Positions 591-16,748 of a DNA stretch of 25,271 bases are shown in pieces. Within the stretch, counting starts at the first letter, position 1. Each line of letters begins with the position of its first letter. Made by a program: the position numbers and the translations under genes. A model generated the notes under the pieces. That model worked only from the letters and a program-made list of their open reading frames with translations. It searched no databases and was not told the origin of the DNA. The stretch comes from an uncultured Verrucomicrobiota bacterium (lineage in GTDB: Bacteria > Verrucomicrobiota > Kiritimatiellia > CAIQIC01 > Lenti-01): NCBI GenBank assembly GCA_938003985.1, contig CALKWZ010000014.1, positions 1-25,271 of the forward strand. Reading direction: 5' to 3'.

Positions 591-733
591 TCCTGCGCTC
601 AGCGCTGCGTTTGATGACCGCCTAGCCTCCGTTTCTTTCCCGCAAGAACTCGCCTCTCGTTGGCAGTCCGAACTTGCACGCCCCCCTTGGGTTGCGGCAT
701 GATATACAAATATTGCGGCGAACGGAGCGAAGG

Positions 734-2967: not shown

Positions 2968-2972
2968 GGCAC

Positions 2973-4211
2973 ATGAAACGGGTGGTCATCACGGGCATGG
3001 GGGCGGTTTCGCCGGTGGGCGGCACGGCGGCGGAACAAGCCGACGCGCTGGACGCCGGGCGGCACGGATTGCGCGCGATGCCGGAGTGGGCGGCCTACAA
3101 GGGGCTGCGCAGCTTGGTGGCGGCGCCGGCGGAGCTGAAGAACGAAAAGGCCATTCCCCGGCAAAACCGCCGCTCGATGAGCCGCATGAGCATCTTCGCC
3201 GCGCAAGCCGCCCAGGAAGCGCTGCGCGACGCCGGCTTGGCGCCCGAGGGGCTGGGCGACGGCCGTACCGGTTGCGTGGCGGGTTCGACGACGGGCAGCG
3301 CCATCGCGCTGGCCCAGGTCTACGAGACGATGTTGCCGGAAAAGGATTTCTCGATCCTGCAATCCATGCAGTTTTTCCAATGCCTGTCGCACACCGTAGC
3401 GATGAACCTCGCGCAATTTCTGGGATTGCGCGGCGTGCTGCTCGCCACGAACGCGGCCTGCGCTTCGAGCCTGCAGGCCATCGGCGCGGCGTTCGATCTG
3501 GTGCGGTCGGGCCGGCAGGACGCCGTGTTCTGCGGCGGGGCCGAAGAAGTCCATGCCACGGTCACGGGCTCGTTCGACATGCTCATGGCAGCGTCCACGC
3601 GCTACAACGACCGGCCCGAAGCGGCGTCGCGCCCCTTCGACGCCGCGCGCGACGGCCTCGTCTGCGGCGAGGGCGCCGGCATCCTCGTGGTGGAGGAACT
3701 GGAGCGGGCCTTGGCCCGCGGCGCGCGGATCCGCGCGGAAATCCTCGGATTCCACACGTGCAGCGGGGGCTCCCACATCAGCGAATCGAACCGCGACGGC
3801 ATCGCCGCCTGCATGCGCGCGGCGCTGGCGGACGCGCGGTTGGAGCCCGCCGCGATCGAATACGTCGGCGCCCACGCCACGGCAACCCTGCAGGGCGACG
3901 GCGAAGAGGCCGCCGCCATCCGCGCGACTTTCGGTGGCCAGGTGCCCGTCAGCAGCCTGAAGGGGAATCTGGGCCACACGCTGGGCGCATCCGGCGCCAT
4001 CGAACTGGCCGCGATCCTCGCCGGGCTCGAACGCGGCCACCTGTATCCCACGCGGAACCTGGAAACGGTGGCGGCCGAATGCGCCGGCATCCGCCACGTG
4101 ACGGCATTGGAGCCGACTTCCGCCCGCACGTTCCTGAAAAACAGTTTTGCGTTCGGCGGCATCCACGCGTCGCTCGTGTGCCGCCGCTGGACCGAGGGAG
4201 ACCCCGCATGA
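2973..4211 (+). CDS. Beta-ketoacyl-ACP synthase (FabF/FabB-like KS, Cys-His-His)
   Basis: MKRVVITGMGAVSPVG N-terminus. Active-site Cys in ATNAACASS, His in GAHATAT, His in GNLGHTLGASG, and C-terminal SFAFGGIHASL. 412 aa. Confidence 0.9.
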   Translation: MKRVVITGMGAVSPVGGTAAEQADALDAGRHGLRAMPEWAAYKGLRSLVAAPAELKNEKAIPRQNRRSMSRMSIFAAQAAQEALRDAGLAPEGLGDGRTGCVAGSTTGSAIALAQVYETMLPEKDFSILQSMQFFQCLSHTVAMNLAQFLGLRGVLLATNAACASSLQAIGAAFDLVRSGRQDAVFCGGAEEVHATVTGSFDMLMAASTRYNDRPEAASRPFDAARDGLVCGEGAGILVVEELERALARGARIRAEILGFHTCSGGSHISESNRDGIAACMRAALADARLEPAAIEYVGAHATATLQGDGEEAAAIRATFGGQVPVSSLKGNLGHTLGASGAIELAAILAGLERGHLYPTRNLETVAAECAGIRHVTALEPTSARTFLKNSFAFGGIHASLVCRRWTEGDPA

Positions 4212-4465
4212 CCCGAGAAGAAATCATCGCCAAAACCAACGCCGTGTTCGCCGAATCCTTCGAGATCGAGCCCGAGCGCCTGAAACCCGAAGCCAACGTC
4301 TTCCTCGATCTGGGGCTCGACAGCCTCGACACGGTGGATCTGGTGGTGGCGATCCAGAAGAAGTTCGGCGTGCAGATCCGCGACGACGAGCGCGTCCGGT
4401 CCATCCGCACGCTGGGCGACGTCTACGACTTCATCGCGACCATCCAGCAAGAAAAGCAGGGATGA
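4208..4465 (+). CDS. Acyl carrier protein (ACP-1)
   Basis: 85 aa, acidic. The LGLDSLDTVDLV motif contains the phosphopantetheine-attachment Ser. ATGA overlap with the upstream KS. Confidence 0.9.
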   Translation: MTREEIIAKTNAVFAESFEIEPERLKPEANVFLDLGLDSLDTVDLVVAIQKKFGVQIRDDERVRSIRTLGDVYDFIATIQQEKQG

Positions 4466-5211
4466 GGCGGGCTTGGGGCATCTGCTATTCGCTGGCGTTC
4501 TACCCTCTGCTGGCGGTCTACACCGTGTCGGCGGTGGCGGGGATGACGTTGTGGATGCTCCTCGGCGCGCCGTTCCATTCGCACCGGGGCAACATGCGCC
4601 GCTTTCGCCGCGCGATCATCTGGTACGGCGCAGGGGTCGTCCGGATCGTGGCGCGGCCCGTGCTGAAAACCGTCTACGAATCGCCGCCGCGGGACGTGCG
4701 GATCCCCAAGTTTTTCGTCGCCAACCACGTTTCCTCGCTGGATGCCTTCCTGCTGGCCCTGGTGCCCGAGGAGGGCGTGGAGGTCGTGAAGGCCTGGCCG
4801 TTCCGGTTGCCGATTCTCGGCGTTTTCGCGCGTCTGGCGGGTTTCTTGAACGTCGAGCGGATGGAGCCGGACGAATTCCGGGCGGCCGTGGAGGACCTGC
4901 TGGGCGAGGGCTATTCGATCGTGGTGTTTCCCGAAGGCACCCGCTCCGGCAGCCGGCAAGTGGGACCGTTCCACGGGGCGATGTTCCGCCTGGCGCTCGA
5001 GCTGCGCGTGCCCCTGGTGCCGGTGTGCATCGTCGGCAACGAGCGGACGCCGGCCAAGGGCTCCTGGATCCTGGAACCGGCGACCGTGCGGATGCGCTGC
5101 TTGCCGGAAATGGCGTGGAACGAGTTTAGCCACATGACGCCCTATCAGTTGAAAAACCACGTGCGCCGGCTGATCCAGGACGAAGTGGACCGCATGGGAG
5201 CGACCGCATGA
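4462..5211 (+). CDS. PlsC/LPLAT-family (lysophospholipid/1-acylglycerol-3-phosphate type) acyltransferase with an N-terminal membrane segment
   Basis: HX4D motif in NHVSSLD and an FPEGTRS motif. Hydrophobic N-terminus WGICYSLAFYPLLAVYTVSAVAGMTLWMLL. ATGA overlap with the ACP stop. Confidence 0.8.
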   Translation: MRRAWGICYSLAFYPLLAVYTVSAVAGMTLWMLLGAPFHSHRGNMRRFRRAIIWYGAGVVRIVARPVLKTVYESPPRDVRIPKFFVANHVSSLDAFLLALVPEEGVEVVKAWPFRLPILGVFARLAGFLNVERMEPDEFRAAVEDLLGEGYSIVVFPEGTRSGSRQVGPFHGAMFRLALELRVPLVPVCIVGNERTPAKGSWILEPATVRMRCLPEMAWNEFSHMTPYQLKNHVRRLIQDEVDRMGATA

Positions 5212-6518
5212 AGCCGTTGCCGCAAGACTTCGATCTGGCTTTCCGTTCCGCCGACGAAATCCAAGCCGTGCAGGAGCGGCGGTTGGCCGCGCATCTGCGG
5301 CAGTGCCGTCGCGCGCCGTTCTATCGAAAGACGCTGGCCGGCGTGGCAAAGCCTGCGCTGCGCCGCTTCCCGCTGGAAGCGCTGCGCGACTTGCCGCTGA
5401 CGACCAAAGCCGATCTGGAAGCGCGCAACGACGATTTCCTCGCCGTGCCGCCGGAGACGGTGCGCGACATCGTGCAGTCGTCCGGCACGACGGGCCGTCC
5501 TACGCGGGTGATGTACACGGCGCGGGATCTCGAGCGGCTGGCCTACAACGAGGCGGTCTGTTTCCGGGGCTGCGGCATGGGGCCGGGGGATCGCGTGCTG
5601 CTGACCTGCACGCTGGACCGCTGTTTCGTGGCCGGCTACGCCTACCACCTCGGCGCGCAGGCGGTCGGCGCATGCACGATCCGCAGCGGGCTCAATCTGG
5701 CGGAAGGCCACGCCGCGGTCATCGCGCTGCAAAGCCCGACGTTCGTCGTGGGCGTTCCGGGGTTCCTGCGCAAGCTCGGCAAGCACCTGCACGACCTGGG
5801 CCGGCCGCCGCAGGGCATCCGCGGACTGATCTGCATCGGCGAACCCCTGCGCGACGCGGAATTGCGTCCGACGGCGCTTTCGCAGGATCTGGAGCGCCTG
5901 TGGGGCGCACCGGCGTACTCGACCTATTCCTCGTCCGAAATCGTGACGTCGTTCTGCGAATGCGCCGCGCGGTGCGGCGGCCACGCCGCGCCCGATCTGG
6001 GCATCGTGGAAATCGTGGATGCGGACGGGAACGTCCTGCCGCCGGGGCAGGCGGGCGAGGTGGTCGTGACGCCGCTGGGCGTCGAGGGCATGCCGCTCGT
6101 CCGGTTCCGCACGGGCGACATCGGTTACTTGGCGGCCGAACCGTGCGCGTGCGGCCGGCAGACGCCGCGGCTGAGCCCGATCCTGGGCCGCCGCGCGCAG
6201 ATGCTGAAGATCCGCGGCACCACGTTCTACCCGGCCACCGCGTTCGAGGTGCTCAACGACGTGCCCGAAATCGGCGAATACTATCTCCAGGTCGAAACGA
6301 CGGGCGGGGAGGACCAGGCCAGCGTCCATCTGAGCCTCAGTCCCGACCGGCCCGAGACGCGCCGCAAGATCGAAGACCGGTTGCTGGCGCGCCTGCGCGT
6401 GCGGGTCCAGCTCTGCGTGGAGCCGGAAGACGACGTGCGCCGGCAGGTCTACGTGGCCCATTCGCGCAAACCCATCCGGTTCATCGACCGGCGCGGAACA
6501 ACGGCAGCCAAGGCTTGA
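5208..6518 (+). CDS. Adenylate-forming ligase of the phenylacetate-CoA ligase (PaaK)/coenzyme F390 synthetase-like type; probable starter- or acyl-activating enzyme
   Basis: SSGTTGRPTRV (P-loop-like AMP motif), YSSSE, and VRFRTGDIG (adenylation core motif). 436 aa. ATGA overlap with the upstream gene. Confidence 0.75.
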   Translation: MKPLPQDFDLAFRSADEIQAVQERRLAAHLRQCRRAPFYRKTLAGVAKPALRRFPLEALRDLPLTTKADLEARNDDFLAVPPETVRDIVQSSGTTGRPTRVMYTARDLERLAYNEAVCFRGCGMGPGDRVLLTCTLDRCFVAGYAYHLGAQAVGACTIRSGLNLAEGHAAVIALQSPTFVVGVPGFLRKLGKHLHDLGRPPQGIRGLICIGEPLRDAELRPTALSQDLERLWGAPAYSTYSSSEIVTSFCECAARCGGHAAPDLGIVEIVDADGNVLPPGQAGEVVVTPLGVEGMPLVRFRTGDIGYLAAEPCACGRQTPRLSPILGRRAQMLKIRGTTFYPATAFEVLNDVPEIGEYYLQVETTGGEDQASVHLSLSPDRPETRRKIEDRLLARLRVRVQLCVEPEDDVRRQVYVAHSRKPIRFIDRRGTTAAKA

Positions 6519-6520
6519 TC

Positions 6521-6877
6521 ATGGAAATCCTTGCCATCCATACCAATGAAGCCCGCGTGCGCTTTCCGGCGAACGCACCGTACTTCGCGGGGCATTTCCC
6601 CGGCCAACCCATCGTGCCGGGGGTCGTGCTGATCGACGCGGCGGTCCAGATCGCGGCGCAGGCGACCGCCCGCCCGTTGCGCCTCCTCCGGCTGGCCCAT
6701 GCCAAGTTCGTCCAGGCGGTCGGACCGGATCAGGAAGCCCTTTGGCGTTTCCAGATTGCGCCGGACCCGGACCGTTCGGAATGGCTCAAGGTTTCCGGCA
6801 AGTGGAGCCAAGGCGAGACCCGGATCGCCGAAATGCAATTCACCGCGGCAGACGAAGGAGATCGCGATGGCCCGTAG
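6521..6877 (+). CDS. FabZ/FabA-like hotdog 3-hydroxyacyl-ACP dehydratase (ApeI-like)
   Basis: 118 aa. FAGHFPGQPIVPGVVLIDA matches the HFPxxPxxPG catalytic-His motif of FabZ-type dehydratases. Confidence 0.75.
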   Translation: MEILAIHTNEARVRFPANAPYFAGHFPGQPIVPGVVLIDAAVQIAAQATARPLRLLRLAHAKFVQAVGPDQEALWRFQIAPDPDRSEWLKVSGKWSQGETRIAEMQFTAADEGDRDGP

Positions 6878-7355
6878 GCGCGAACAAGCCATGTCGTTCC
6901 CGGACGAACCGGCCTATCCGCCGATCCAGGCGGCGGTGCAGCACCGGGTCGGGTTTTCGGAAGTCGATCCGATGCGGATCGTCTGGTTCGGACGCTACGC
7001 GACGTTTTTCGAGCAGGCCTCGGCGGCGCTGCGCGACCGGTGCGGACTGTCGCACGAAGATTTCTTCCGCGCGGGCATCCAGCCGCCCATCGTGCGCTAC
7101 GAGGTCGAATATCTGCGGCCGTCGCGCCTGGACGAGCAGTTGAAGATCGTGGCGCGCCTGCACGGGACCGAAGCGGCGCGGCTGAACACCAGCTATCAGG
7201 TCTTCGGTCCGGACGGGGCGCTGCGCGTGGCGGCGCGCACGGTGCAGGTGTTCACGGAAATCCACACGGGCATCGTCTGTTTCGTGCCGCCGAAAATCTG
7301 GCTCGATTGCCTGGAGCGCTGGCGGAAAGGGGAATTCGCGTGCCTGCAGGCGTAG
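6867..7355 (+). CDS. 4HBT/YbgC-like hotdog acyl-CoA/acyl-ACP thioesterase (ApeK-like)
   Basis: GAAGGAG RBS at 6854-6860. VGFSEVDPMRIVWFGRY matches the YbgC-type catalytic Asp region. About 162 aa. Overlaps the dehydratase gene by 11 nt. An alternative ATG lies at 6891. Confidence 0.7.
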   Translation: MARRREQAMSFPDEPAYPPIQAAVQHRVGFSEVDPMRIVWFGRYATFFEQASAALRDRCGLSHEDFFRAGIQPPIVRYEVEYLRPSRLDEQLKIVARLHGTEAARLNTSYQVFGPDGALRVAARTVQVFTEIHTGIVCFVPPKIWLDCLERWRKGEFACLQA

Positions 7356-9028
7356 AGCCCGTTTGCCTCGTCGCGCAGGAGCTGCTCTCCGCCTATGGGC
7401 GGGGCGTGGCGCGCTGCGCGGACGGCTTGCTGGCCGGCCAAAGCGCCTTGCGGCCGGCGGTTGGCCGGGAGGGGCCGGCCGCGGTGACGGCGCAATTCAC
7501 GGGCGCGATTCCGCCGGGCGAACTGCCGGTTGCCGGAGTCGGCCGGTTCGCGGCGTTGCTGCGCGCGGGAATGGCGGGAATGGACGTGCCGGCGGATGCG
7601 CCCATCTACCTGGCCACGACGGCCGGCGCGGTCGATGAATTGGAATCCGCCGTTTTTGCCGGCGCCGAATTCGCGGGGCAGGGCGGGTTCTCGCAGTTGC
7701 CTGGACTCGCCGCCGCGGCGCTCGGCGTGGCGCCGGAACGGATTCAAGTCGTTTCCTCCGCCTGCGCGTCCTCGACGGCCGCGCTGGCGTTGGCGGCCGG
7801 CGCCATTCGCCGCGGCGAAACCGAATGCGCGCTCGTGGTCGGCGCCGATATCGTGTCGGAATTCGTGCTGGCGGGGTTTTCGGCGTTGATGGCGGTCGAT
7901 CCGGACGGCGCGCATCCGTTCGATGCGGACCGCAAGGGTGTCGCGCTGGGCGAGGCTTTCGCCGCGGCTTTGCTGATGCGCGGCGACCGGGCCGCGCGCG
8001 AAGGTCGGTCTTGCCTCGGCGCGGTGGCGGGCTGGAGCCTGACCTGCGAGGCCAACCACCTGACCGGACCGTCGCGCGACGGCGCGCCGCTGGCGGAGGC
8101 CATTTGCGGCGCTCTGGACATGGCCGGCGCTGCGCCCCTCGACGTGGCCGCCATTTGCGCGCACGGCACGGGGACCGTCTACAACGACCAGATGGAGCTG
8201 CTGGCGTTCCGCCGCGCGTTCGGCGCGGCGCCGCGGCCGACGTTTTCGGTGAAGGGCGGCATGGGCCACGTGCTGGGCGCCGCCGGTTTGGCGGAAGCGC
8301 TGCTCGTGCTGGAATTCCTGCGGCGCGGCCGGGTTCCGCCGACGGTCGGCTTGCGCCGCGCCGCGGACGATGCGGCCGGCTGGGTTTCTGCGGAACCGCG
8401 CCCGGTGGATTCCGCCGGCATCGCGATTTCCACCAATTCGGGCTTCGGCGGAACCAACGCGGCCGTGGCGCTGACCTTGGCGCCGCGCGGTCTTCCGGCT
8501 CCGCAGGCGAAAACGGAGCCGCAACGGGTGAGCACCGTCCGGGTGGCCGCGGCGGATGCCGCGGCGACGCCGGAGGAAACCGCTTCCTTGCCGCGCAATT
8601 TCAACCGGTTCGGACCCGACGTGCGGCGGGCCTATTTCGCCGTGCGCCGGGCTTTGGCCGCGGCCGGCTTGGCGTCCGAAGCCGGGCGCATCGGATTGAT
8701 CGCCTGCGACCGGGCCGGCAGCGAACGGGCCAACTGGGCCTATTTCGCCGATTACGCGAATTCGGGCCGGACGTTGGCGCGCGGCCAGATGTTCGCGTAT
8801 ACTTTGCCGACCGCGATCGCGGCGGAGTGCGCCATCGCCTGCCGGCTGACGGGACCGTTGCTTTCCGTGGCGGCCGCGGACGGCTCGCCGCGCGCCGCCG
8901 AGTGGGCCGCGCGCGGCCTGCTGGCGGACGGATTGTGCGATGCGGTCGTTTTGCTTTCGACGGATTCCGCCGAAACCCACGCGGCGGCGTGGGGCGCGGC
9001 GGGAGCCCAACCCAAGGAACATCCATGA
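7340..9028 (+). CDS. Beta-ketoacyl synthase (Cys-His-His) fused through an Ala/Pro-rich linker to a C-terminal Cys-less KS-N-terminal-like (CLF-like) domain
   Basis: GTG start at 7340, with no in-frame ATG near the N-terminus and GAAAGGGG upstream. KS motifs: VVSSACASS, CAHGTGT, GMGHVLGAAG, SGFGGTNAAV. Linker at about 8485-8590. The C-terminal ~145 aa (RIGLIACD...FAYTLPTAIAAECAIACRLTGPLLSVAAADG...CDAVVLL) parallels the N-terminal half of the CLF-like protein at 14118 and has no Cys at the catalytic position. Confidence 0.8.
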   Translation: MPAGVEPVCLVAQELLSAYGRGVARCADGLLAGQSALRPAVGREGPAAVTAQFTGAIPPGELPVAGVGRFAALLRAGMAGMDVPADAPIYLATTAGAVDELESAVFAGAEFAGQGGFSQLPGLAAAALGVAPERIQVVSSACASSTAALALAAGAIRRGETECALVVGADIVSEFVLAGFSALMAVDPDGAHPFDADRKGVALGEAFAAALLMRGDRAAREGRSCLGAVAGWSLTCEANHLTGPSRDGAPLAEAICGALDMAGAAPLDVAAICAHGTGTVYNDQMELLAFRRAFGAAPRPTFSVKGGMGHVLGAAGLAEALLVLEFLRRGRVPPTVGLRRAADDAAGWVSAEPRPVDSAGIAISTNSGFGGTNAAVALTLAPRGLPAPQAKTEPQRVSTVRVAAADAAATPEETASLPRNFNRFGPDVRRAYFAVRRALAAAGLASEAGRIGLIACDRAGSERANWAYFADYANSGRTLARGQMFAYTLPTAIAAECAIACRLTGPLLSVAAADGSPRAAEWAARGLLADGLCDAVVLLSTDSAETHAAAWGAAGAQPKEHP

Positions 9029-10296
9029 ATTTGAAGCTGATCTATCCGCGCTGGCCGAAGCTGCAGCACCAAACGGAATTCCATTTGCCGCCGCACGGGC
9101 CGGTGTGCTTCGCGGCCACGTTGCCGCCGGACGTCCAGGTGACGTTCGTCGACGAGAACGTGGACCCGCTGGATCTCCAGGATTCGCCGGAACTGGTCGC
9201 GATGTCGGTCATGCTGACCTGCCAGATTCCCCGCGCCTGGGAAATCGCCGACGCCTACCGCGCGCGCGGCATTCCCGTGATCTTCGGCGGCATCGCCACG
9301 ATGCTGCACGCGGAGGAAACGCAGGCCCACGCGACCAGCGTGTTCCTCGGTGAGGCCGAGGGCCGCATGGAACAGGTGCTGGCCGACTTCCGGGCGGGGC
9401 AATTGAAGCCGGTCTACGATTTCCTGCGCAATCCGCCGGACATCCGGCGGGTGGGGCCGGCGCGCCGCGACATCCTCAACCGCCCGCGGTACAACTTCCG
9501 GGGCGTGCAGATGGTCGATCTGATCCACGCCTCGCGCGGCTGCAAGTTCAAGTGTTTCCCGTGCTGCACGCCGTATCTGGGCGGGTGTTCCTTCCGGCCG
9601 CGCCCGCTCGACGTCGTGGTGGCGGAAATGGCCGCGATCCCGAACAACCGGTTCTTCATCGTCGACAATTCGCTGGCGCAGGACGGCAAGTGGGAGAAGG
9701 AACTGTTCAAGGCCATTGCGCCGCTGAAGAAGAAATGGGTGTCGCATCCGATCTACGACACCGACGAAGTGCTGTCGCTGGCGGCGGACGCGGGCTGCTG
9801 GTACGTCTACCAGGCCGTGGCGGGCATCACGCAGGGCATCCGGCGCCGGATCGAACGGCTGCACGCGCACGGCATCGGCATCGAGGGGACGATCCTGCTG
9901 GGGTTGGACGACCAGACCGAAGACGACGTCAAGCGCATGGTCGACTTCCTGCTGGAAATGAAGTTGGACATGGCGGAGTTCACGGTGCTGGTGCCGTTTC
10001 CGCACACGCCGGTGCGCGAGCAGCTGGAGCGCGAAGGGCGCATCCTGCACAACGACTGGGTGCGCTACACCGGGTCGGAAGTGGTTTACCGTCCCGCCAA
10101 GATGTCGCCGGACACGCTTGAAAAGATGTACCACTACGCCTGGGATGCCTTCTACAAGGAAGCCGACGCCGCGACGCGGATGGCGCGCCTGTTCCTGAAG
10201 GTCATCCACAAGGAAATGAAGGACGGCACCAATCCGGACGTCGGCCGGCGCCGCGACCGGAAGGGCTGGGGCGCGGGAGCCGGCGGGGCGCCATGA
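9025..10296 (+). CDS. B12-binding-domain (class B) radical SAM enzyme
   Basis: N-terminal Rossmann-like B12-binding-type region (VAMSVMLTCQIPRAWEIADAYRARGIPVIFGG). CX3CX2C in ASRGCKFKCFPC, with Cys codons at 9541, 9553 and 9562. 423 aa. ATGA overlap with the upstream gene. Confidence 0.8.
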   Translation: MNLKLIYPRWPKLQHQTEFHLPPHGPVCFAATLPPDVQVTFVDENVDPLDLQDSPELVAMSVMLTCQIPRAWEIADAYRARGIPVIFGGIATMLHAEETQAHATSVFLGEAEGRMEQVLADFRAGQLKPVYDFLRNPPDIRRVGPARRDILNRPRYNFRGVQMVDLIHASRGCKFKCFPCCTPYLGGCSFRPRPLDVVVAEMAAIPNNRFFIVDNSLAQDGKWEKELFKAIAPLKKKWVSHPIYDTDEVLSLAADAGCWYVYQAVAGITQGIRRRIERLHAHGIGIEGTILLGLDDQTEDDVKRMVDFLLEMKLDMAEFTVLVPFPHTPVREQLEREGRILHNDWVRYTGSEVVYRPAKMSPDTLEKMYHYAWDAFYKEADAATRMARLFLKVIHKEMKDGTNPDVGRRRDRKGWGAGAGGAP

Positions 10297-11651
10297 AGAT
10301 CCTGCTGGTCGCCTGCAATCCGGTCGTCGCGCCATACCCGGTCTATCCGCTGGGCATGGCGGTGATCGCCAGCGCCCTGAAGCAGGCCGGCCACGACGTG
10401 CGCCAGCACGACATGCTGGCCGGCAGATTTTCGCTGGATACGCTGCGGGAGGTCTTGGCCGCGGATCCACCCGGCCTGATCGGCGTGTCGTTCCGGAATC
10501 TCGACAACGTGAACGCGTGCAACGAAGCGTGGTACGTCGACCAGCTGGCCGAACTGGTGGCGGCGCTGCGCGCGGCGAGTTCCGCGCCGATCCTGTTGGG
10601 CGGTCCGGGTTTTTCCGTGATGCCGGAACAGGTGCTGGCGGCGTCGGGCGCGGATTACGGCGTGGTGGGGGAAGGGGAACGCCTGGTGGTCGAACTGGCG
10701 GATCGGTTGGCGCGCGGGGAGCGTCCGGAGCAGCGCATCTGGCGCGCCGGGGCCTCGCTGGACGCGGCCGGCATGGCGGCGCCCGCCTACGACGAGGCGA
10801 TTTTGGCTTTCTACCAGGGTTCTGGCGGCGTGACGCCGCTGCAAAGCAAGCGCGGTTGCCCGCACCGCTGCGCCTATTGCACCTATCCGCTGCTGGAGGG
10901 CCACCGGCTGCGCCCGCGCGATCCCGAGCAAGTCGTCGACGATATCGTGGCGCTCCAGGCGCGCGGCGCGAAACAGATCTTCTTCACCGATTCGATTTTC
11001 AACGACCAGGCCGGCCAATACCGCGCGCTGGTGGCGGCCATGCGGCGGCGGGGCGTCCAGATTCCCTGGACCGGATTTTTCCGTCCCGAAATGCTGTCGC
11101 CGGAAATCCTCGCGGACATGAAGGCGACGGGACTGAATTCCGTCGAACTGGGCTCCGACGCGACGTCCGACGCGACCCTGCGCGGCATGGGGAAGGATTT
11201 CACCTTCGCGGAGGTCAAGGCCGTTCATGATCGCTTTCTGGCGGCGCAACTGACGGTATCGCACTATTTCATGATGGGCGGTCCCGACGAAAGCCGCGAG
11301 ACGGTGGAAGAGGGCATCGCCAACGTCCTGCAACTGAAAGGCGCCGCCTCGTTCATTTTCCTCGGCGTGCGGATCCTGCCCGATACGCCCTTGGCCGCGC
11401 GGGCGCTGGCCGAGGGCCTGATCGGTCCCGATACCGATCTGCTGCATCCGATCTACTATTTCTCGCCCGCGCTCGATCGGGATTGGCTGCACGAGCGGTT
11501 GCAGGCGGCGTTCAAGCCCCATCGCCACGTGGTGTATCCGCCGGACGCGATGGACAGCGGTTTGGCCTTTTTGCATCGGTTGGGCTACACGGGCATGTCG
11601 ATCGATCTGCTGCTCAAGCGGGGCGACCGGCGCGGCCAGCGCGCGCAATGA
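10293..11651 (+). CDS. B12-binding-domain (class B) radical SAM enzyme. It resembles what I recall being annotated as the lipid biosynthesis B12-binding/radical SAM protein family.
   Basis: MKILLVACNP...YPLGMAVIASALKQAGHDV...IGVSFRNL...LLGGPG forms the B12-binding-like N-terminus. CX3CX2C in KRGCPHRCAYC, with Cys codons at 10857, 10869 and 10878. 452 aa. ATGA overlaps at both ends. Confidence 0.8.
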   Translation: MKILLVACNPVVAPYPVYPLGMAVIASALKQAGHDVRQHDMLAGRFSLDTLREVLAADPPGLIGVSFRNLDNVNACNEAWYVDQLAELVAALRAASSAPILLGGPGFSVMPEQVLAASGADYGVVGEGERLVVELADRLARGERPEQRIWRAGASLDAAGMAAPAYDEAILAFYQGSGGVTPLQSKRGCPHRCAYCTYPLLEGHRLRPRDPEQVVDDIVALQARGAKQIFFTDSIFNDQAGQYRALVAAMRRRGVQIPWTGFFRPEMLSPEILADMKATGLNSVELGSDATSDATLRGMGKDFTFAEVKAVHDRFLAAQLTVSHYFMMGGPDESRETVEEGIANVLQLKGAASFIFLGVRILPDTPLAARALAEGLIGPDTDLLHPIYYFSPALDRDWLHERLQAAFKPHRHVVYPPDAMDSGLAFLHRLGYTGMSIDLLLKRGDRRGQRAQ

Positions 11652-12583
11652 CCATGGCTGCCGCAGAATCCACGGCCACCGCCCCCGCCGCTCCGGCGCG
11701 ACCTCGTCCCCGCGGGCGGGGCAACGCTCTGGGATTCTGGTTTTTCCGGACGGCCCTGCGGCTCACGGGACTGCGGGGAGCCTACGGTCTGCTCTACTTC
11801 GTGGCGCCTTACTATGCCTTGTTCGATCGCGCGGCGATTGCCGCCGCCGGGGCCTATTTGCGGCGCCTCTTTCCGCGGCAATCGCCGTTGGCGCGGCGGC
11901 TGGCGATCTGCCGCCTGTTCATCCGCCAAGGCCAATGCCTCATCGATCGCGGCGCGCACAACGCCGGAGCCGTCGAATTCCGGTTCGACACGGCGCAGGT
12001 GGAGCAAGCCGGCGTCGCGCTGGCGGGGAATCCGGGCGGTTTCATCCTGCTGCTGTCGCATTTCGGCGGCTGGCAACTGGCCTTGCCCCATCTGCGAAAC
12101 CTGACCGCGGCCCGGCCGGTGTCCCTGCTGATGAACGCGGCGGAAACGCCGGACGTGCAGGCGCACGTGCGCGGCGACGACGCCGGATTCAACGTGATAT
12201 CGCCCGATGCCGGACCGGCCTGCGTGGTCGAGATGGTCGCCCGCCTCCAGCAGGGAGAAATCGTGTCCATCATGGGGGATCGCGCCTACGGCGGCCAGAC
12301 CGCGGTCGTGCCGTTTCTGGGCGAACCCGCCCATTTTCCCGCCAGCGCCTTCGCGGTGGCGCGGGCCGCCCAATGCCCGGTGCTGGCCTTGTTCGCCGTC
12401 AAAACCGGCGGCCAAACCTATGCGTTGGAAACGCGCTTGTTTCCGCCGCCCGCCCGGGACGACCGGCAATCGATCCGCAAGGGCGTGGCCGATTACGCCG
12501 CAACGCTCGAGGCGTACGTCCGCCAACATCCCTTTCAAGGTTTCCTTTTCGACGACGTGTGGCGCCATCCGGAGGCCGGCTGA
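11648..12583 (+). CDS. LpxL/HtrB-like (lipid A late acyltransferase family, LPLAT superfamily) acyltransferase
   Basis: 311 aa with a membrane-proximal N-terminus (ALGFWFFRTALRLTGL). LLLSHFGGWQ is the His-containing catalytic block. IMGDRAYGG...VPFLGEPAHFPASAFAVARAAQCPVL has a layout typical of LpxL-type enzymes. Family assigned from recalled motif layout. Confidence 0.65.
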   Translation: MTMAAAESTATAPAAPARPRPRGRGNALGFWFFRTALRLTGLRGAYGLLYFVAPYYALFDRAAIAAAGAYLRRLFPRQSPLARRLAICRLFIRQGQCLIDRGAHNAGAVEFRFDTAQVEQAGVALAGNPGGFILLLSHFGGWQLALPHLRNLTAARPVSLLMNAAETPDVQAHVRGDDAGFNVISPDAGPACVVEMVARLQQGEIVSIMGDRAYGGQTAVVPFLGEPAHFPASAFAVARAAQCPVLALFAVKTGGQTYALETRLFPPPARDDRQSIRKGVADYAATLEAYVRQHPFQGFLFDDVWRHPEAG

Positions 12584-12599
12584 GCCCGGAAACGAGGCT

Positions 12600-12654: not shown

Positions 12655-12933
12655 ATGGACCCCCGCGAGCAAGCCCTGGCAGAAATCAAGAAGAAGCTGA
12701 AAGCCCAGTTGATCGATCACCTGAATCTCCAGGACGTCGCGCCGGAGCAGATTAAAGACGACGATCCGCTGTTCGGCGGCGGGCTGGGCTTGGATTCGCT
12801 GGACGCCGTGGAAATCGTGGTCGTCCTGCAGCGGCATTTCGGGGTGGAAATCAAAGACATGGAAGTCGGCCGCAAGGTCTTCCAGACGGTGAATTCGCTG
12901 GCCGATTTCATCTACGAAAAGACGCATGCCTAG
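12655..12933 (+). CDS. Acyl carrier protein (ACP-2)
   Basis: 92 aa. GLGLDSLDAVEIVVVLQRHF contains the attachment-site Ser. Strong AAGGAG RBS. Confidence 0.9.
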   Translation: MDPREQALAEIKKKLKAQLIDHLNLQDVAPEQIKDDDPLFGGGLGLDSLDAVEIVVVLQRHFGVEIKDMEVGRKVFQTVNSLADFIYEKTHA

Positions 12934-12936: not shown

Positions 12937-14121
12937 ATGCCTCCGGCCGGCATGAAGGCGGAGATCGCGATTTCAGGTCTGGGCGTCGTGTCCGCGGCGG
13001 GCGGCGACGTGGCCGCTTCGCTCCGGACCTTGCGCGCCGGCCGGCGGCCGGAATGGATCGTCTGTCCTTTCGCCAAGCTGCCCGTGGAATTGCCGATGTT
13101 CGCGGTGCCCGGCGGACCCAACGTCGATCGCACGTTCCATCTGGCCATGCAGGCGGTCGGCCAGGCGCTGGCGGATGCCGGACTCGATTCTTTGCCGGAG
13201 GGATTCCGTCTCGGGGTCTGTCTGGGCACGACTGTGGCGTGCCAGTTGAACGACATTCCGTTCTATGCCGAGTATCGCGCCACGGGCAATCCTTCGCTGG
13301 AACCCGTCGAACGGTTTGCGGCGGGCAGCTTGGCCGAACGCGTCGCGCGGGAAACGCGGGCGACCGGTCCGGCCCTGACCGTGGTGAACGCCTGTTCGTC
13401 GGGGACGGACGCCATGGGCGTGGCCATGGCGTGGCTGCGGGCGGGGCGGTGCGATGCGGTTTTGGCCGGCGGGGCGGATGAATTGAGCCCGATTCCCACC
13501 GTGGGCTTCCATGCGCTCGGCTTGACCAGTCCGGAACCGTGCAAGCCTTTCGATCGGACGCGCCGCGGACTGAACCTGGGCGAGGGGGCCGGCATCGTCG
13601 TGCTGGAACGGGCCGACAGCGCCGTCCGGCGCGGCCGGAAAGGCAATCTGTTCGTCGCCGGGTTCGGCGGCGCTTCGGACGGCTATCACCTGACCGCGCC
13701 CCATCCCGAAGGGCTCGGCTTGGAAATTTCCATCCGCGCCGCTCTGAACGAGGCGGGCATCGAACCCGCCGAGGTCGATTTCGTCAACGCCCACGGCACG
13801 TCGACGCCGGAAAACGACCGCATCGAAGGTGCGACGCTGGCCCGGATTTTCGGGGCCGGAGTGCGGGCCATCTCGACGAAGGGCGCCACGGGCCACACGC
13901 TGGGTGCGGCGGGGGGCATCGAAACGGTGTTTACGGCCTTGGCCCTGCGCGAGGGTTGGATTCCGCCCAGCATTGGTTTCGCGGAACGGGACGAGGGGAT
14001 ACCCTTTGCGCCGTTGACGGAAGTTACGCCGGTCGTCCGGCGGCATGCCCTGTCCACCTCGCTGGCGTTCGGCGGCAACAACGCGGTCGTGGTATTGGAG
14101 CGACGGGAGAATCCGGCATGA
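12937..14121 (+). CDS. Beta-ketoacyl-ACP synthase (KS, Cys-His-His; ApeO-like partner of the downstream CLF-like protein)
   Basis: VVNACSSGTDA (Cys), NAHGTSTPEND (His), GATGHTLGAAG (His), LAFGGNNAVVVL. The alternative start ATG 12952 (MKAEIAISGLG) is equally plausible. Confidence 0.9.
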   Translation: MPPAGMKAEIAISGLGVVSAAGGDVAASLRTLRAGRRPEWIVCPFAKLPVELPMFAVPGGPNVDRTFHLAMQAVGQALADAGLDSLPEGFRLGVCLGTTVACQLNDIPFYAEYRATGNPSLEPVERFAAGSLAERVARETRATGPALTVVNACSSGTDAMGVAMAWLRAGRCDAVLAGGADELSPIPTVGFHALGLTSPEPCKPFDRTRRGLNLGEGAGIVVLERADSAVRRGRKGNLFVAGFGGASDGYHLTAPHPEGLGLEISIRAALNEAGIEPAEVDFVNAHGTSTPENDRIEGATLARIFGAGVRAISTKGATGHTLGAAGGIETVFTALALREGWIPPSIGFAERDEGIPFAPLTEVTPVVRRHALSTSLAFGGNNAVVVLERRENPA

Positions 14122-15143
14122 ACCTTGCCGGACTAGGCATCGTGTTTCCCGGCGGAGCGGGCGTGCCCGCGTTGCGGGAGGCGTTGTCCGCCGGCCGCCC
14201 GTTGGTGGGCGAAATGTTGGCCAAAGAACAGGTCCCGGTTTTGAAGGTGCCGGCCGCGGCCCTGACCGGGAATCCCGTGCTGGCGCCGGCCCGGCGGGCG
14301 GATCGCTTCTGCAAGATGACCCTGCTGGCGGCGACGGAAGCGCTGGCCGGCTGCCAAGCGGCGCCGGACCGCATCGGGATCATCCTGGCCACCGCGTTCG
14401 GTCCCCACGGCACGGTGTTCAAGTTCGTGAACGATCTGTTGGAATTCGGCGACGAGCAGGCGTCGCCGACGGTGTTTTCCCAATCCGTCCACGCCGCGGC
14501 GGCCTCGATGGTCGCGGCGGCGGCGCATCTGCACGGTCCGGCGCTGACCGTCGCGGATCTGGCGTTCCCGTTCGAGGAAGCGCTGGCGCTGGCGGATACC
14601 TGGTTGGCCGACGGCCGTTGCGACGCGGTGCTCGCGGGTGCGGTGGACGAAACCTCGGACGTGCTGGCCCACGTGGTCCGGCGCAAATGGGCGCCGGCGC
14701 CCGACGGGATCGCCCGTCCGGCGCAAGCGGGCCAGCCGGCCTACGTGCCCGGCGAGGGCGCCGTGTTCGTGCGCCTGGAACGCGGCAACGGCCCGCTGCT
14801 CACCGTGGCGGATGCGCCGGACGTTTCGGCCGCCGCGAATCTATTCAATGCCGGCGCGCTGGGCGGCGACGACGCGGCGCTCCGCAGGCTGGCGCAATCG
14901 GCCGTTTCCGCGCAAACGTTCGTGTCGCTGCTCGGCAACGTCCGCATCGGCAGCGCCTTCCATTTGGCGGTCGCCGGACTGATGCGCCAAGACGACCGAT
15001 TCTACCCCGACGTGCTGCCGGCGGACCAAACCGGGTTTTCCGGCGGCGGGACCGGTGCGCCCAAGGGACCGATCCAAGTGATTTCCGCATGCGGATCGCG
15101 CGTTCGCGCGATATCGCTCCAGGCGCATGGCGAACGAGGATGA
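14118..15143 (+). CDS. KS-like protein lacking the active-site Cys and His residues (chain-length-factor-like)
   Basis: ATGA overlap with the KS. It shows thiolase-fold-like sequence (RIGIILATAFGP...SPTVFSQSVHAAAASMVAAAAHLHGPALTV...CDAVLAGAVDE). The catalytic position reads ADLAFP rather than a Cys, and no HGTGT or GH motifs are present. Confidence 0.75.
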   Translation: MNLAGLGIVFPGGAGVPALREALSAGRPLVGEMLAKEQVPVLKVPAAALTGNPVLAPARRADRFCKMTLLAATEALAGCQAAPDRIGIILATAFGPHGTVFKFVNDLLEFGDEQASPTVFSQSVHAAAASMVAAAAHLHGPALTVADLAFPFEEALALADTWLADGRCDAVLAGAVDETSDVLAHVVRRKWAPAPDGIARPAQAGQPAYVPGEGAVFVRLERGNGPLLTVADAPDVSAAANLFNAGALGGDDAALRRLAQSAVSAQTFVSLLGNVRIGSAFHLAVAGLMRQDDRFYPDVLPADQTGFSGGGTGAPKGPIQVISACGSRVRAISLQAHGERG

Positions 15144-15399
15144 TATGGCGACGACCCCTGACGAAACGTTGTTGAAGCTGAAGGAACACGTGGCTTTCCT
15201 GCTGGGCGTGGAAGCCTCCGGCATCGCCGCCGACCAACCCCTGCACCTGCTCGGAATCGATTCGATGGGGTTCGTCGATCTGCTGGTGTTCATCGAAAAG
15301 CAATTCGGCCTGTCGCTGATGAACTCCGGCCTGTCCCAGGACGATTTCGCCTCGCTGGCGGTTCTGGCGGGCCGGATCGCCGGGGCCCGGCCATCATGA
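15127..15399 (+). CDS. Acyl carrier protein (ACP-3)
   Basis: LLGIDSMGFVDLLVFIEKQF contains the attachment-site Ser. The alternative start ATG 15145 lies just after the upstream stop and is preceded by GAGGA. Confidence 0.85.
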   Translation: MANEDDMATTPDETLLKLKEHVAFLLGVEASGIAADQPLHLLGIDSMGFVDLLVFIEKQFGLSLMNSGLSQDDFASLAVLAGRIAGARPS

Positions 15400-16748
15400 A
15401 GGTTCCGAGTTCTTCGCGCAAACGCTACTTGGGCGGAGCCGACTGGTGCGTGGCCGCGTTGCGGCAGGGCACCCTCGAAACCACGGGCAGGCCCATCACG
15501 TTCCACGTGGCGGTTTTCATCGCGGGGCGTCTCGATCCCGCCCGTCTCCAAGGTCGTTTCCAAGACTATTGCGCCCGTTTTCCGCTGCTTTGGGGCCGGG
15601 CCGCCCGCTGCTGGTGTCTGGCCCCGTATTGGAAAAGCCCGGCGAATTCCGCGGAGCGCAAGGCTCCTTTCCGGCACGTGGCGGACGGCGACGCAGCGAC
15701 TCCGGCCGCCGTGGCCCGCCGGATCGAAGAACTGGCCAACGATCCGGATCGTCTGCGCGGGTGCGCCGTTGCGTTGGAATTTCTGCAGGACGCCGCTGCG
15801 GCCGGCGCGCTCGTGTTTTCGTTCGACCATCTGTTGTTCGACGCGGCCGGCGCCGAGCGGTTCATCGACCTGTTCTGTCGATTTGCCGACGGTCGGGCGG
15901 CGGATGCCGAGTTCCCCGATCCGCAGGCGCCGGAGCCGGCGCACCTCGACCAATGGAGCAAGCGCTTCGCCAGCGGGCAGCAACTGAACCGCTCGCTGCG
16001 CGAATTGCTGCCCGGCGCGACCGCCAATCTGGAGTTGCCGGCAAATGCCCGGCGGCGTCCGTTCCGGTTCCGGGTCCTGTCCCTCACGGCGGAGGAAACG
16101 CGCCGCGCGCAGGAACAGGCGTTTGCGACGGCCGGCTACCTGATGTTCACGCCCTACGTGTTGGCCACGGCGGCCGCGACGTTCCAGCCGCGGTTCGCCC
16201 GGCGCGTCGCGCCCAACGCCGACTTCATCGTCACGGTTTCGACCAGCCGCCTGCGGCCGCCCGGCGAGCGCGCGCCGCACGTGTTTTTCAACGATCTCTC
16301 GTTTCTCTATTTCGGATTTCCCGTGGCCGAAGCGGGGGAGCGCGACGAGTTGGCCCGGACCTTGCGCGACCAGATGATCGCGCAGGTCAAGGCGGGCATG
16401 CCCGCCGCCGTAGAGGATTCCAACTTGCTCATGCGGATCTTGCCGCCGCGCGCCTTTTGGAAATTCATGTTCACGTTTTTCCGCAACCGGCTGTCGTCGT
16501 TCGCGCTGACCTGTCTGGGCGATCCCTTGCTCAAGACGAACAGCGTTCTGGGCGGCACGATCCGCACCCACGTCCATTTTCCCGTCATTCCCGTGCCGCC
16601 GGGCTTGGGGCTGATCCTGAACCGCAGCGGCGACGTTTACCACGTCGTGTTGTCCTATTTGGAGGGCGTCCTGTCCGAAGACGAAGTCGCGACGTTGCTG
16701 GACGAATTTCGCCAGCGCTTGCTCAACGGAGCTTCGCCGGAGCCATGA
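15396..16748 (+). CDS. Protein of unknown family with an HxxxD motif; putative condensation-domain/WS-DGAT/CAT-superfamily acyltransferase
   Basis: 450 aa. FSFDHLLFDAAGAERF places His145 (15828-15830) and Asp149 (15840-15842), resembling the HHxxxDG condensation motif. Size fits a C-domain fold. ATGA overlaps at both ends. Function inferred from one motif plus context. Confidence 0.45.
   Translation: MKVPSSSRKRYLGGADWCVAALRQGTLETTGRPITFHVAVFIAGRLDPARLQGRFQDYCARFPLLWGRAARCWCLAPYWKSPANSAERKAPFRHVADGDAATPAAVARRIEELANDPDRLRGCAVALEFLQDAAAAGALVFSFDHLLFDAAGAERFIDLFCRFADGRAADAEFPDPQAPEPAHLDQWSKRFASGQQLNRSLRELLPGATANLELPANARRRPFRFRVLSLTAEETRRAQEQAFATAGYLMFTPYVLATAAATFQPRFARRVAPNADFIVTVSTSRLRPPGERAPHVFFNDLSFLYFGFPVAEAGERDELARTLRDQMIAQVKAGMPAAVEDSNLLMRILPPRAFWKFMFTFFRNRLSSFALTCLGDPLLKTNSVLGGTIRTHVHFPVIPVPPGLGLILNRSGDVYHVVLSYLEGVLSEDEVATLLDEFRQRLLNGASPEP

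Follow-up and report, generated by a model that had tools for sequence, protein, structure and literature searches.

The analysis argues for a model in which two adjacent genes, rSAM-A and rSAM-B, encode a conserved, co-translated pair of distinct radical-SAM tailoring enzymes that have different jobs in a lipid cluster of anaerobic bacteria, an aryl-polyene (APE)-like type II PKS/FAS system of the type that antiSMASH labels 'ladderane'. We put the probability of this explanation as a whole at about 0.5. The cluster type with its adjacent radical-SAM genes is already known, and the pair described here is a further member.

Gene content of the cluster

The window, by which we mean the whole stretch of 25,271 nucleotides that was analysed, contains the following genes.

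674..1465, +, FabG-like short-chain dehydrogenase (ketoreductase)
1480..2967, +, phytoene-desaturase/CrtD-like FAD amine-oxidase family protein (start approximate)
2970..4211, +, FabF-like ketosynthase, KS1 (start approximate)
4220..4465, +, acyl carrier protein, ACP1 (start approximate)
4468..5211, +, PlsC-type acyltransferase (start approximate)
5208..6518, +, PaaK/FlxY-like AMP-dependent ligase (FlxY model 385 bits, below the cutoff of 520)
6522..6877, +, ApeI-like hot-dog dehydratase homologue
6873..7355, +, 4HBT-type thioesterase (start approximate)
7340..9028, +, ketosynthase with a C-terminal KS-N-like fragment of ~180 aa at about 8480-9025 (start approximate, GTG at 7340)
9025..10296, +, rSAM-A, 423 aa; Rossmann-like N-domain, TIM-barrel core and helical C-terminal region (weak DUF4070 match)
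10293..11651, +, rSAM-B, 452 aa; TIGR04072 member with a TsrM-like model
11648..12583, +, LpxL-type (lipid A biosynthesis family) acyltransferase, ATGA-coupled to rSAM-B
12679..12933, +, acyl carrier protein, ACP2 (start approximate)
12937..14121, +, FabF-like ketosynthase, KS2
14118..15143, +, chain-length-factor-like KS partner (true CLF), ATGA-coupled to KS2; Pfam Ketoacyl-synt_2 on homologues
15127..15399, +, acyl carrier protein, ACP3
15396..16748, +, conserved 450-aa protein with no assigned function that co-occurs with the rSAM pair
16754..17914, +, FAD-dependent oxidoreductase, PF12831 (start approximate)
18583..20115, +, radical-SAM/SPASM enzyme with a weak ApeP-dehydratase-like C-terminus (14 bits; clear in homologues)
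20112..20744, +, LolA-like lipoprotein carrier homologue (start approximate)
20741..23161, +, RND/MMPL-type (HpnN-like) transporter (start approximate)
23137..23835, +, conserved 232-aa protein with a weak DUF3261 match
23835..25271, +, third B12-binding/radical-SAM gene, HpnR/BchE-like but below family cutoffs, running past the window end

The APE-type gene set is complete in the window: KS/CLF, two or more ACPs, an SDR ketoreductase, ApeI/ApeP-like dehydratases, a 4HBT thioesterase, a PaaK/FlxY-like ligase of the aryl-acid type, an LpxL-type acyltransferase and LolA-like and MMPL/RND export genes, all of which, together with extra KS genes and a DUF3261-like protein, are shared with APE clusters of the E. 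coli/Xenorhabdus and flexirubin types. Beyond this set the window holds four rSAM genes, two FAD enzymes, the KS-N-like fragment and the conserved 450-aa protein; radical-SAM genes are not known from characterised APE clusters. Among the window ORFs scanned there was neither a class I methyltransferase gene nor a match to the tyrosine/histidine ammonia-lyase family.

The gene immediately upstream of rSAM-A had been read in the earlier note as a KS-CLF fusion. Its ketosynthase part is as described, with the ACASS active-site Cys and both His residues present, but its partner is the ~180-aa fragment, which resembles the N-terminal half of a ketosynthase, and not a full CLF. In other phyla the fragment has a small gene of its own, located immediately upstream of rSAM-A.

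Relation to known clusters

The arrangement itself has precedents in the literature: adjacent radical-SAM genes in the Kuenenia/Desulfotalea 'ladderane' cluster have been discussed since 2009 (PMC2649909, PMC4790861). Rattray et al. (2009) were the first to describe the cluster type, in these two organisms (PMC2649909), and the 'ladderane' cluster is a class detected by antiSMASH (PMC4489286, PMC9902471). Kuenenia stuttgartiensis kuste3335-3352 contains the adjacent 'SAM radical' genes kuste3342/kuste3343 (PMC4790861), and the Desulfotalea psychrophila counterpart contains DP1853/DP1855. In common with the window, these clusters have FabG, two neighbouring radical-SAM genes and a phenylacetyl-CoA-ligase-like gene (PMC4790861, PMC2649909), as well as several FabF paralogues, including non-canonical ones, ACPs and a phytoene-desaturase-like gene. 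The likeness to Kuenenia is one of published gene inventory. The Kuenenia cluster also has class I SAM methylases and a glycosyltransferase, both of which the window lacks, and its host is an anammox bacterium whereas the host here is a Verrucomicrobiota/Kiritimatiellia-type MAG. In the literature up to 2026 reviews we found no experiment on any member, and the radical-SAM enzymes of the cluster are uncharacterised (PMC13459092).

A conserved and tightly coupled gene pair

Both reading frames translate without internal stops, giving the two adjacent ORFs of 423 aa (9025-10296) and 452 aa (10293-11651) that the earlier note had described, and its claim of ATGA coupling to the neighbours on each side is borne out by three 4-nt start/stop overlaps, at 9025-9028, 10293-10296 and 11648-11651. 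Among species-representative genomes, at least 557 loci hold homologues with 62-99% identity, and the two rSAM genes are therefore real and not chance ORFs. Alignment of rSAM-A with rSAM-B gave 24% identity over 182 residues, which excludes a recent duplication, as had been supposed. Domain analysis likewise agrees with the earlier description of two distinct radical-SAM enzymes with class-B architecture, and the tight coupling of the pair within an acyl-ACP/type II PKS-like operon was confirmed.

The pair is kept well beyond this genome. The 77 testable loci represent Omnitrophota, Nitrospirota, Desulfobacterota, Kiritimatiellia and further phyla, and in 76 of them rSAM-B is the next gene downstream of rSAM-A; the gene order KS-N-like fragment, rSAM-A, rSAM-B is retained across phyla, and the 4-nt overlaps recur in two further loci (L084, L085) and on one more contig. 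Homologous loci carry genes for ApeI-like, ApeP-like, LolA, MMPL, LpxL-type acyltransferase, GT2/DUF2062, KS/CLF and ACP proteins. The distribution of the pair looks restricted to anaerobes. At 98-99% identity, the closest genomes are MAGs of Verrucomicrobia/'Spartobacteria', and the family spans many non-anammox phyla; on these host grounds the cluster was not assigned to anammox ladderane biosynthesis. A MAG placed only as far as the class Brocadiia also carries the pair (locus L083).

rSAM-B is a TIGR04072 protein resembling TsrM

rSAM-B belongs to NCBIfam TIGR04072 ('lipid biosynthesis B12-binding/radical SAM protein'), which it matches over its full length (residues 2-441 on model positions 1-442 of 443) with 577.8 bits and E = 1.3e-173 against a cutoff of 360. 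Its Pfam matches to B12-binding PF02310 (62.9 bits) and Radical_SAM PF04055 (73.5 bits) are both above gathering scores, and its domain order is that of class B, with a Rossmann-type cobalamin domain at the N-terminus and, after it, a radical-SAM barrel containing CX3CX2C. The motif GCPHRCAYC, recognised earlier, contributes C189/C193/C196, which are invariant in 48 aligned homologues.

The best solved or curated relatives are BzaD and TsrM, a tryptophan C2-methyltransferase (PDB 6WTE/6WTF) that is the closest solved protein by sequence (E = 8e-33) as well as by fold (TM-score 0.84 between the cobalamin-bound structure and an AF2 model of pLDDT 87.4). The N-terminal cobalamin domain matches that of TsrM at E = 1.5e-17, and the CX3CX2C motif is common to both, although overall identity is only 23% and the setting is a lipid/polyketide line here and an amino acid in TsrM. 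Residue roles in TsrM are taken from PMC12931638. Its corrin-facing Arg69 is kept as R68 in 48/48 sequences, but Glu236 is replaced by Tyr (Y198) and Glu273, which caps the cluster and blocks radical chemistry in TsrM, by V (30/48) or I (18/48) at position 235. These exchanges predict that radical chemistry is possible in rSAM-B, unlike in TsrM. The residue evidence is mixed, because a TsrM-like Arg under the corrin, associated in a 2026 review with enzymes that lack radical methylation (PMC12931638), is combined with Y198 and an open iron site that look like those of radical methylases. Assignment of rSAM-B as a TsrM-type non-radical Csp2 methyltransferase was rejected: there is no Glu at the E273 position, and the Trp C2-methylase model TIGR04428 gives 145.5 bits (cutoff 500), after 189 bits for BzaD TIGR04385 (cutoff 450), these being the next-best NCBIfam models.

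rSAM-A is a separate orthologue group with an AprD4-like fold

rSAM-A has the canonical cluster motif that had been pointed out, GCKFKCFPC, and its cysteines C173/C177/C180 are invariant in 53/53 aligned homologues, as are C181 and a DNS motif. Its placement in the radical-SAM superfamily follows from CX3CX2C in a partial TIM barrel matching AprD4, TsrM and MiaB, in an AF2 model (pLDDT 88.9) whose barrel fold is modelled with high confidence. Profile scores are low: B12-binding PF02310 gives 27.7 bits (gathering score 32.1), Radical_SAM PF04055 22.4 bits (gathering score 29.5) and DUF4070, an additional Pfam match, 22.1 bits. TIGR04072 membership, found for rSAM-B, does not extend to rSAM-A, which matches the model partially with 35.5 bits, under the cutoff of 360, and neither rSAM-A nor the family representatives P0241 and P0242 reach any NCBIfam cutoff. 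rSAM-A thus falls into an orthologue group of its own, which has no name and is unusually well conserved, with 62-69% identity across phyla in at least 550 genome loci. At 50% clustering its relatives comprise only two full-length representatives, after which identity drops to 40% or less, and median identity across phyla is 65% for rSAM-A, compared with 48% for rSAM-B and 29-54% for the other cluster enzymes.

The best fold match is AprD4 (PDB 6FD2; TM-score 0.76-0.79 over the whole length), followed by MgmA, TsrM and MiaB, and AprD4 is also the best PDB sequence match of the family profile (E = 1.7e-08). In both proteins a Rossmann-like N-domain precedes the radical-SAM barrel. AprD4 is the radical-SAM 1,2-diol dehydratase of apramycin biosynthesis, acting on an aminoglycoside, and its cluster motif carries an insertion (CPYPCRFYC), in contrast to that of rSAM-A; the score of rSAM-A against the AprD4 family model NF033070 (radical-SAM diol dehydratase) is 33.3 bits with a cutoff of 500. 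At 20% identity the resemblance is one of fold only and leaves the chemistry of rSAM-A unfixed.

These comparisons bear on the earlier claim that both enzymes bind B12, which is supported for rSAM-B and is in doubt for rSAM-A. AprD4 has been reported not to bind cobalamin (PMC12931638), and because it is the closest fold to rSAM-A, B12 use is supported for at most one enzyme of the pair; rSAM-A may use no cobalamin at all. Its SxxL...GG stretch, like those of true cobalamin domains, is kept, and rSAM-A may by this feature bind cobalamin after all, although its alignment with a cobalamin-binding protein reaches only E = 0.09.

Model for the pair and alternatives

In our model, rSAM-B would bind cobalamin in the manner of TsrM, since the Arg under the corrin is kept, and would leave the unique iron free for SAM, making a 5'-deoxyadenosyl radical possible, in contrast to TsrM. 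Its most likely job would be to methylate, by way of cobalamin, an unsaturated or aryl carbon in the growing chain, because its nearest characterised relatives, TsrM and BzaD, methylate sp2 carbons. rSAM-A, with its own cluster and SAM, would carry out a non-methylating radical step, e.g. dehydration, rearrangement or C-C bond formation, on an intermediate on which rSAM-B also acts and which the KS/KS-N-like product of the adjacent upstream gene probably presents. The product would then follow the aryl-polyene route, in which the LpxL-type enzyme performs the acyl transfer and LolA/RND the export. That the substrate is an ACP-bound chain, as opposed to a free starter acid or a finished lipid, we infer from operon position only. 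The third B12-type, HpnR-like rSAM (23835 onward) is an equally good methylase candidate. The earlier proposal of methyl branching or C-C bond formation on a carrier-bound chain is a reasonable conjecture.

Both enzymes might instead be cobalamin-dependent radical C-methyltransferases that place methyl branches on the carrier-bound chain. Their shared class-B domain order, the fact that methylation is the commonest class-B reaction (PMC12931638), the SxxL...GG alignment of rSAM-A and the lack of a class I methyltransferase gene among the ORFs scanned are in line with this. However, rSAM-A falls under the Pfam B12-binding gathering score, reaches no methylase family cutoff and is structurally closest to a non-cobalamin enzyme, and paralogues at 24% identity in a strict pair suggest two different jobs; we consider dual methylation unlikely. 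Action of one or both enzymes before loading, on a free small molecule such as a starter acid activated by the PaaK/FlxY-like ligase, is suggested by TsrM, BzaD and AprD4, which act on small free molecules, and by the presence of an aryl-acid-type ligase with no obvious starter-unit pathway. It is quite improbable given that the pair sits between KS/KS-N-like and acyltransferase/ACP/KS genes, with 4-nt overlaps with the KS-N-like gene, and that the class-B enzymes CysS and TokK, according to structure-match descriptions, accept pantetheine-linked substrates.

HpnP/HpnR hopanoid methylases, HpnJ, GDGT ring synthases and BchE resemble rSAM-A and rSAM-B in class-B architecture and work on hydrophobic substrates in reactions that need no oxygen, but their substrates are isoprenoids or tetrapyrroles and scores against the pair are weak, all far below family cutoffs. 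By analogy to GDGT ring synthases and BchE, the pair could form C-C bonds or rings in a polyunsaturated chain, as a cyclase system from which ladderane formation arose or which runs parallel to it. Both the literature and the name of the family link TIGR04072-type enzymes to ladderane candidates, the two FAD desaturase-like cluster genes could supply a polyene, and a preprint describes cyclisation of archaeal lipid tails by B12-type rSAM enzymes (bioRxiv 10.1101/2025.10.20.683597). Yet the hosts are not anammox bacteria, Desulfotalea, whose cluster is syntenic, produced polyunsaturated hydrocarbons that were acyclic, but not ladderanes (PMC2649909), and the nearest characterised rSAM-B relatives are methylases, making ring formation very unlikely. 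Least probable to us is a role with the FAD enzymes in oxygen-independent desaturation or polyene formation, following Rattray's idea of an 'anaerobic PUFA/PUHC pathway': KR and DH enzymes (SDR, ApeI-like, ApeP-like) already yield a polyene without a desaturase, and no known desaturase is among the class-B enzymes near rSAM-B in sequence. This is set against the apparently anaerobe-restricted distribution, the co-occurrence of the pair with phytoene-desaturase-like and PF12831 FAD oxidoreductase genes, and archaeal lipid desaturation reported for rSAM enzymes.

Compared with our preferred reading of a pair with different jobs, a more far-reaching extension is a long shot: rSAM-A and rSAM-B might dock on the KS/KS-N-like protein and work there only together, as a two-enzyme radical machine that forms a C-C bond in an ACP-tethered polyene or rearranges its skeleton. 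If this were true, many anaerobic phyla would make a class of branched or carbocyclic lipids that is new and undescribed, and the pair would represent the ancestral chemistry of anammox ladderane synthesis.

Results

A coupled radical-SAM pair in an aryl-polyene-like cluster

The window is, on its gene content, a predicted aryl-polyene-like type II PKS/FAS lipid cluster with extra radical-SAM and FAD enzymes, four of the former in all. Genes were called by homology, a GC3 frame filter having been discarded as too crude, and all of them lie on the + strand in the following order.

Gene order of the window
155-230, +, tRNA-Ala (cgc)
257-341, +, tRNA-Tyr (gta); the two tRNAs stand immediately before the first cluster gene
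+, FabG-like SDR
+, CrtD/phytoene-desaturase-like FAD protein
+, ketosynthase KS1
+, acyl carrier protein ACP1
+, PlsC-type acyltransferase
+, PaaK/FlxY-like AMP ligase
+, ApeI-like dehydratase
+, 4HBT thioesterase
7340-9028, +, ketosynthase (KS) with a C-terminal fragment of ~180 aa (about 8480-9025) resembling the N-terminal half of a ketosynthase (KS-N-like)
9025-10296, +, rSAM-A (423 aa)
10293-11651, +, rSAM-B (452 aa)
+, LpxL-type acyltransferase
+, ACP2
+, KS2
14118-15143, +, chain-length factor (CLF)
+, ACP3
15396-16748, +, conserved 450-aa protein
16754-17914, +, PF12831 FAD oxidoreductase
+, 180-aa protein
18583-20115, +, radical-SAM/SPASM enzyme with a weak ApeP-like tail
+, LolA-like protein
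+, RND/MMPL transporter
+, DUF3261-like protein
23835-25271, +, third B12-binding/radical-SAM gene, cut by the window end

Both rSAM-A and rSAM-B translate without internal stops, and each contains one CX3CX2C motif (GCKFKCFPC and GCPHRCAYC). ATGA overlaps join rSAM-A to the gene upstream (9025-9028), rSAM-A to rSAM-B (10293-10296) and rSAM-B to the next gene (11648-11651), so that translation and overlap coordinates bear out the earlier note's description of two ORFs with these motifs, coupled on both sides. That note also held the two to be too different for a recent duplication; in agreement with this, their identity is 24% over 182 aligned residues, which argues that they are old paralogues. 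Promoter- and terminator-like sites within 8500-12700 are not above the shuffled expectation, which is consistent with a single operon, and an Rfam scan of the window found two tRNAs only, with no cobalamin riboswitch or further Rfam family. The pair consists of two different radical-SAM enzymes that are co-transcribed and set as a unit inside an acyl-ACP assembly line, and they are probably co-translated.

The KS-N-like fragment directly upstream of rSAM-A has no active-site Cys and carries the motif ...YTLPTAIAAE.... In other phyla, its homologue is a separate gene of 183-234 aa that always lies immediately upstream of rSAM-A and often overlaps it by 4 nt; examples are 9453-10004 in an Omnitrophota locus (L001), 8044-8748 in a MAG of the class Brocadiia (L083) and 9363-10004 in the cultured Desulfosarcina sp. 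BuS5 (L084). Because the C-terminal 180 aa of the KS are fused in the window and encoded separately elsewhere, cooperation between KS and fragment is suggested, and we suggest that KS, KS-N-like fragment and rSAM-A act jointly.

Several other genes of the cluster merit description. CLF was located directly after KS2 by tblastn with homologues; an alternative frame for this gene (14045-15175) was rejected, having no domain matches and disagreeing with the tblastn placement. The 450-aa protein, which has no domain matches, and the PF12831 FAD oxidoreductase accompany the rSAM pair in most loci, with 26-37% identity across loci, and are additions relative to ordinary aryl-polyene clusters. The enzyme at 18583-20115 is AhbD/NirJ-like below cutoffs and has a weak ApeP-dehydratase match in its C-terminal region; this domain is clear in the homologues from Omnitrophota and Brocadiia, and the protein is a putative fusion of a radical-SAM enzyme to a polyene-pathway dehydratase partner. 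The third B12-binding/radical-SAM gene matches PF02310 (60 bits) and PF04055 (64 bits) and resembles HpnR with a score of 233 bits, short of the 650 cutoff; its Omnitrophota counterpart (20693 onward) encodes 980 aa comprising a tandem of two B12-rSAM units.

Strict pairing of rSAM-A and rSAM-B across phyla

Relatives of rSAM-A are encoded at no fewer than 557 loci in a scan of species-representative genomes, with hosts including Omnitrophota, Nitrospirota/Thermodesulfovibrionia, Desulfobacterota, Kiritimatiellia, Lentisphaerae, Verrucomicrobiota, Elusimicrobia, Acidobacteriota and Spirochaetota; the window protein is 98-99% identical to those of MAGs labelled Verrucomicrobia bacterium UBA2281 and Spartobacteria bacterium (L003, L014). 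Across phyla, the two genes hold together strictly: among the 77 loci with enough sequence downstream of rSAM-A, 76 have an rSAM-B homologue directly downstream on the same strand. The sole exception, an uncultured Spirochaetota MAG (L033, 10001-16035), has a rearranged cluster copy with rSAM-B ~3.5 kb off on the opposite strand. In the reverse check from rSAM-B homologues, rSAM-A lies directly upstream with a 4-nt overlap in two of three contigs, the third being rearranged. No natural rSAM-A/rSAM-B fusion occurs among the 150 best library representatives.

The Brocadiia MAG and Desulfosarcina sp. BuS5 share a core order of ApeI-like protein, thioesterase, KS, small KS-N-like protein, rSAM-A, rSAM-B, (GT2/DUF2062), (LpxL-type acyltransferase), ACP, KS, CLF, ACP, unknown protein and FAD oxidoreductase; the Brocadiia locus lacks the two bracketed genes and has an ACP gene directly after rSAM-B. 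In most phyla, a GT2/DUF2062 glycosyltransferase gene divides rSAM-B from the LpxL-type acyltransferase (12617-13810 in L001; 12615-13796 in L084). It is absent from the 11648-11651 junction of the window, tblastn over the whole window found no copy, and it is also missing from the closest relatives, L003 and L014.

Of all enzymes of the cluster, rSAM-A is the best conserved when distant loci are compared: its median identity is 65% and that of rSAM-B 48%, while the ketosynthases reach 42-58% and the majority of the remaining proteins 29-50%. Multiple protein partners are one possible reason for this conservation.

rSAM-B has features of TsrM and of radical enzymes

rSAM-B is a full-length member of TIGR04072 (rSAM_ladder_B12, 'lipid biosynthesis B12-binding/radical SAM protein'; 577.8 bits, cutoff 360), a membership proposed earlier as a test for both proteins and one that does not extend to rSAM-A (35.5 bits). 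It passes the Pfam B12-binding (62.9 bits) and Radical_SAM (73.5 bits) models, and the runner-up curated models, BzaD (189 bits) and tryptophan C2-methylase (145 bits), stay well under their cutoffs. TsrM is its best solved relative both by sequence (E = 8e-33) and by fold (TM-score 0.84; AF2 model pLDDT 87.4). In TsrM, Arg69 sits beneath the corrin, the unique iron is capped by Glu273, which is believed to prevent radical chemistry, and Glu236 occupies the position between the cofactors that is usually hydrophobic in radical methylases (PMC12931638). Opposite TsrM Arg69, Glu236 and Glu273, a HMMER alignment places R68, Y198 and I235 of rSAM-B; in the rSAM-B family (n=48), neither R68 nor Y198 varies, and V or I stands at position 235 throughout. 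This residue comparison suggests that in rSAM-B a cobalamin site like that of TsrM goes together with an open radical-SAM site of canonical type, and we predict that the enzyme binds cobalamin and can cleave SAM to a radical.

rSAM-A belongs to a tight family with an AprD4-like fold

rSAM-A reaches no NCBIfam cutoff (best, TIGR04013, 48.8 bits versus 251), falls below the Pfam gathering scores for B12-binding (27.7 bits) and Radical_SAM (22.4 bits), and lies at that for DUF4070 (22.1 bits; gathering score 22). Its family is large and tight, with 6034 matches among 8000 scored candidates, the best 120 of which are 65-91% identical and come from many phyla. A library clustered at 50% holds just two full-length representatives (63% and 51% identity), after which there is a steep fall in score to generic class-B paralogues of ≤40% identity, which likewise reach no curated cutoff. 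Invariant are C173, C177, C180, C181, the D214-N215-S216 motif and C258, together with H24-G25, S61-x-M63-L64-x-C66, G88-G89, H95 and H102. A MiaB-like auxiliary Fe-S cluster in the N-domain, via C28, C66 and H95, was considered and rejected, since 4 of 53 sequences, that of Desulfosarcina sp. BuS5 among them, have Val in place of C28.

The AF2 model of rSAM-A is confident (pLDDT 88.9, pTM 0.86), and its top PDB fold match is AprD4 (TM-score 0.76-0.79, 20% identity), followed by MgmA/QCMT, TsrM, MiaB, CysS and TokK. Published work states that AprD4 binds no cobalamin (PMC12931638). In rSAM-A, a short SxxL...GG stretch gives a weak alignment to a cobalamin-binding protein (E = 0.09). With sub-threshold Pfam scores, no family cutoff reached and an AprD4-like fold, rSAM-A looks like a cobalamin-free enzyme, yet it may bind the cofactor after all; of the two B12-binding enzymes that the earlier note had described, at most one is supported.

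Discussion

The pair is a further member of an already known, functionally unsolved cluster type, and the gene arrangement is not new, being present in the literature on Kuenenia and Desulfotalea and in antiSMASH 'ladderane' clusters. Strous, Rattray and colleagues described radical-SAM and phytoene-desaturase-like genes in Kuenenia fatty-acid clusters that are extensively syntenic with Desulfotalea psychrophila, which makes polyunsaturated hydrocarbons and not ladderanes (PMC2649909). Kuenenia cluster kuste3335-3352 lists glycosyltransferase, phytoene desaturase, FabG, phenylacetyl-CoA ligase, FabF paralogues and ACPs, with the adjacent 'SAM radical' genes kuste3342 and kuste3343, whose expression in E. 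coli was unsuccessful (PMC4790861); compared by published gene list, this inventory closely matches the window. antiSMASH calls 'ladderane' clusters from version 3 on (PMC4489286), and their presence and expression are documented for Desulfobacterota, Omnitrophota, Verrucomicrobiota and further non-anammox phyla, including expression of the cluster family in anoxic waters (PMC9902471). Reviews from 2022 to August 2026 describe ladderane-associated radical-SAM enzymes as still uncharacterised (PMC9204698, PMC12931638, PMC13459092), and our literature search on TIGR04072, or on aryl polyene plus radical SAM, found no characterisation. A protein search that started from the Brocadiia homologue yielded no named anammox genus.

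The nearest characterised relatives of rSAM-B methylate sp2 carbons, and C-methylation is therefore its most likely reaction; by this analogy, we put at roughly one in three the probability that rSAM-B, acting with cobalamin, would C-methylate an unsaturated or aryl carbon of the chain. rSAM-A would carry out a separate, non-methylating step started by a SAM radical, perhaps with no need for cobalamin; rival readings are that the pair methylates twice, or that it performs cyclisation or anaerobic desaturation. For both enzymes the substrate would be a carrier-bound intermediate on which the neighbouring KS/KS-N-like protein acts, the rival being action on the free starter acid. The product would then undergo acyl transfer and LolA/RND export, as in the aryl-polyene route. 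We consider it improbable that the pair is a two-enzyme radical machine that builds a new lipid skeleton and is ancestral to ladderane chemistry.

What our analysis adds is the strict pairing, the unusual conservation of rSAM-A with its AprD4-like fold outside curated families, and the mixture in rSAM-B of a TsrM-like cobalamin site with a radical-type open site. Loci of the cluster family are very widespread among anaerobic bacteria (no fewer than about 550 in species-representative genomes), and the family is the non-anammox counterpart of candidate ladderane clusters, whose chemistry has been a standing question since 2002-2006. Its cultured carriers include Desulfosarcina sp. BuS5, found here, and Desulfotalea psychrophila, according to Rattray et al. 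(PMC2649909); work on this chemistry is therefore possible outside the genetically intractable anammox bacteria.
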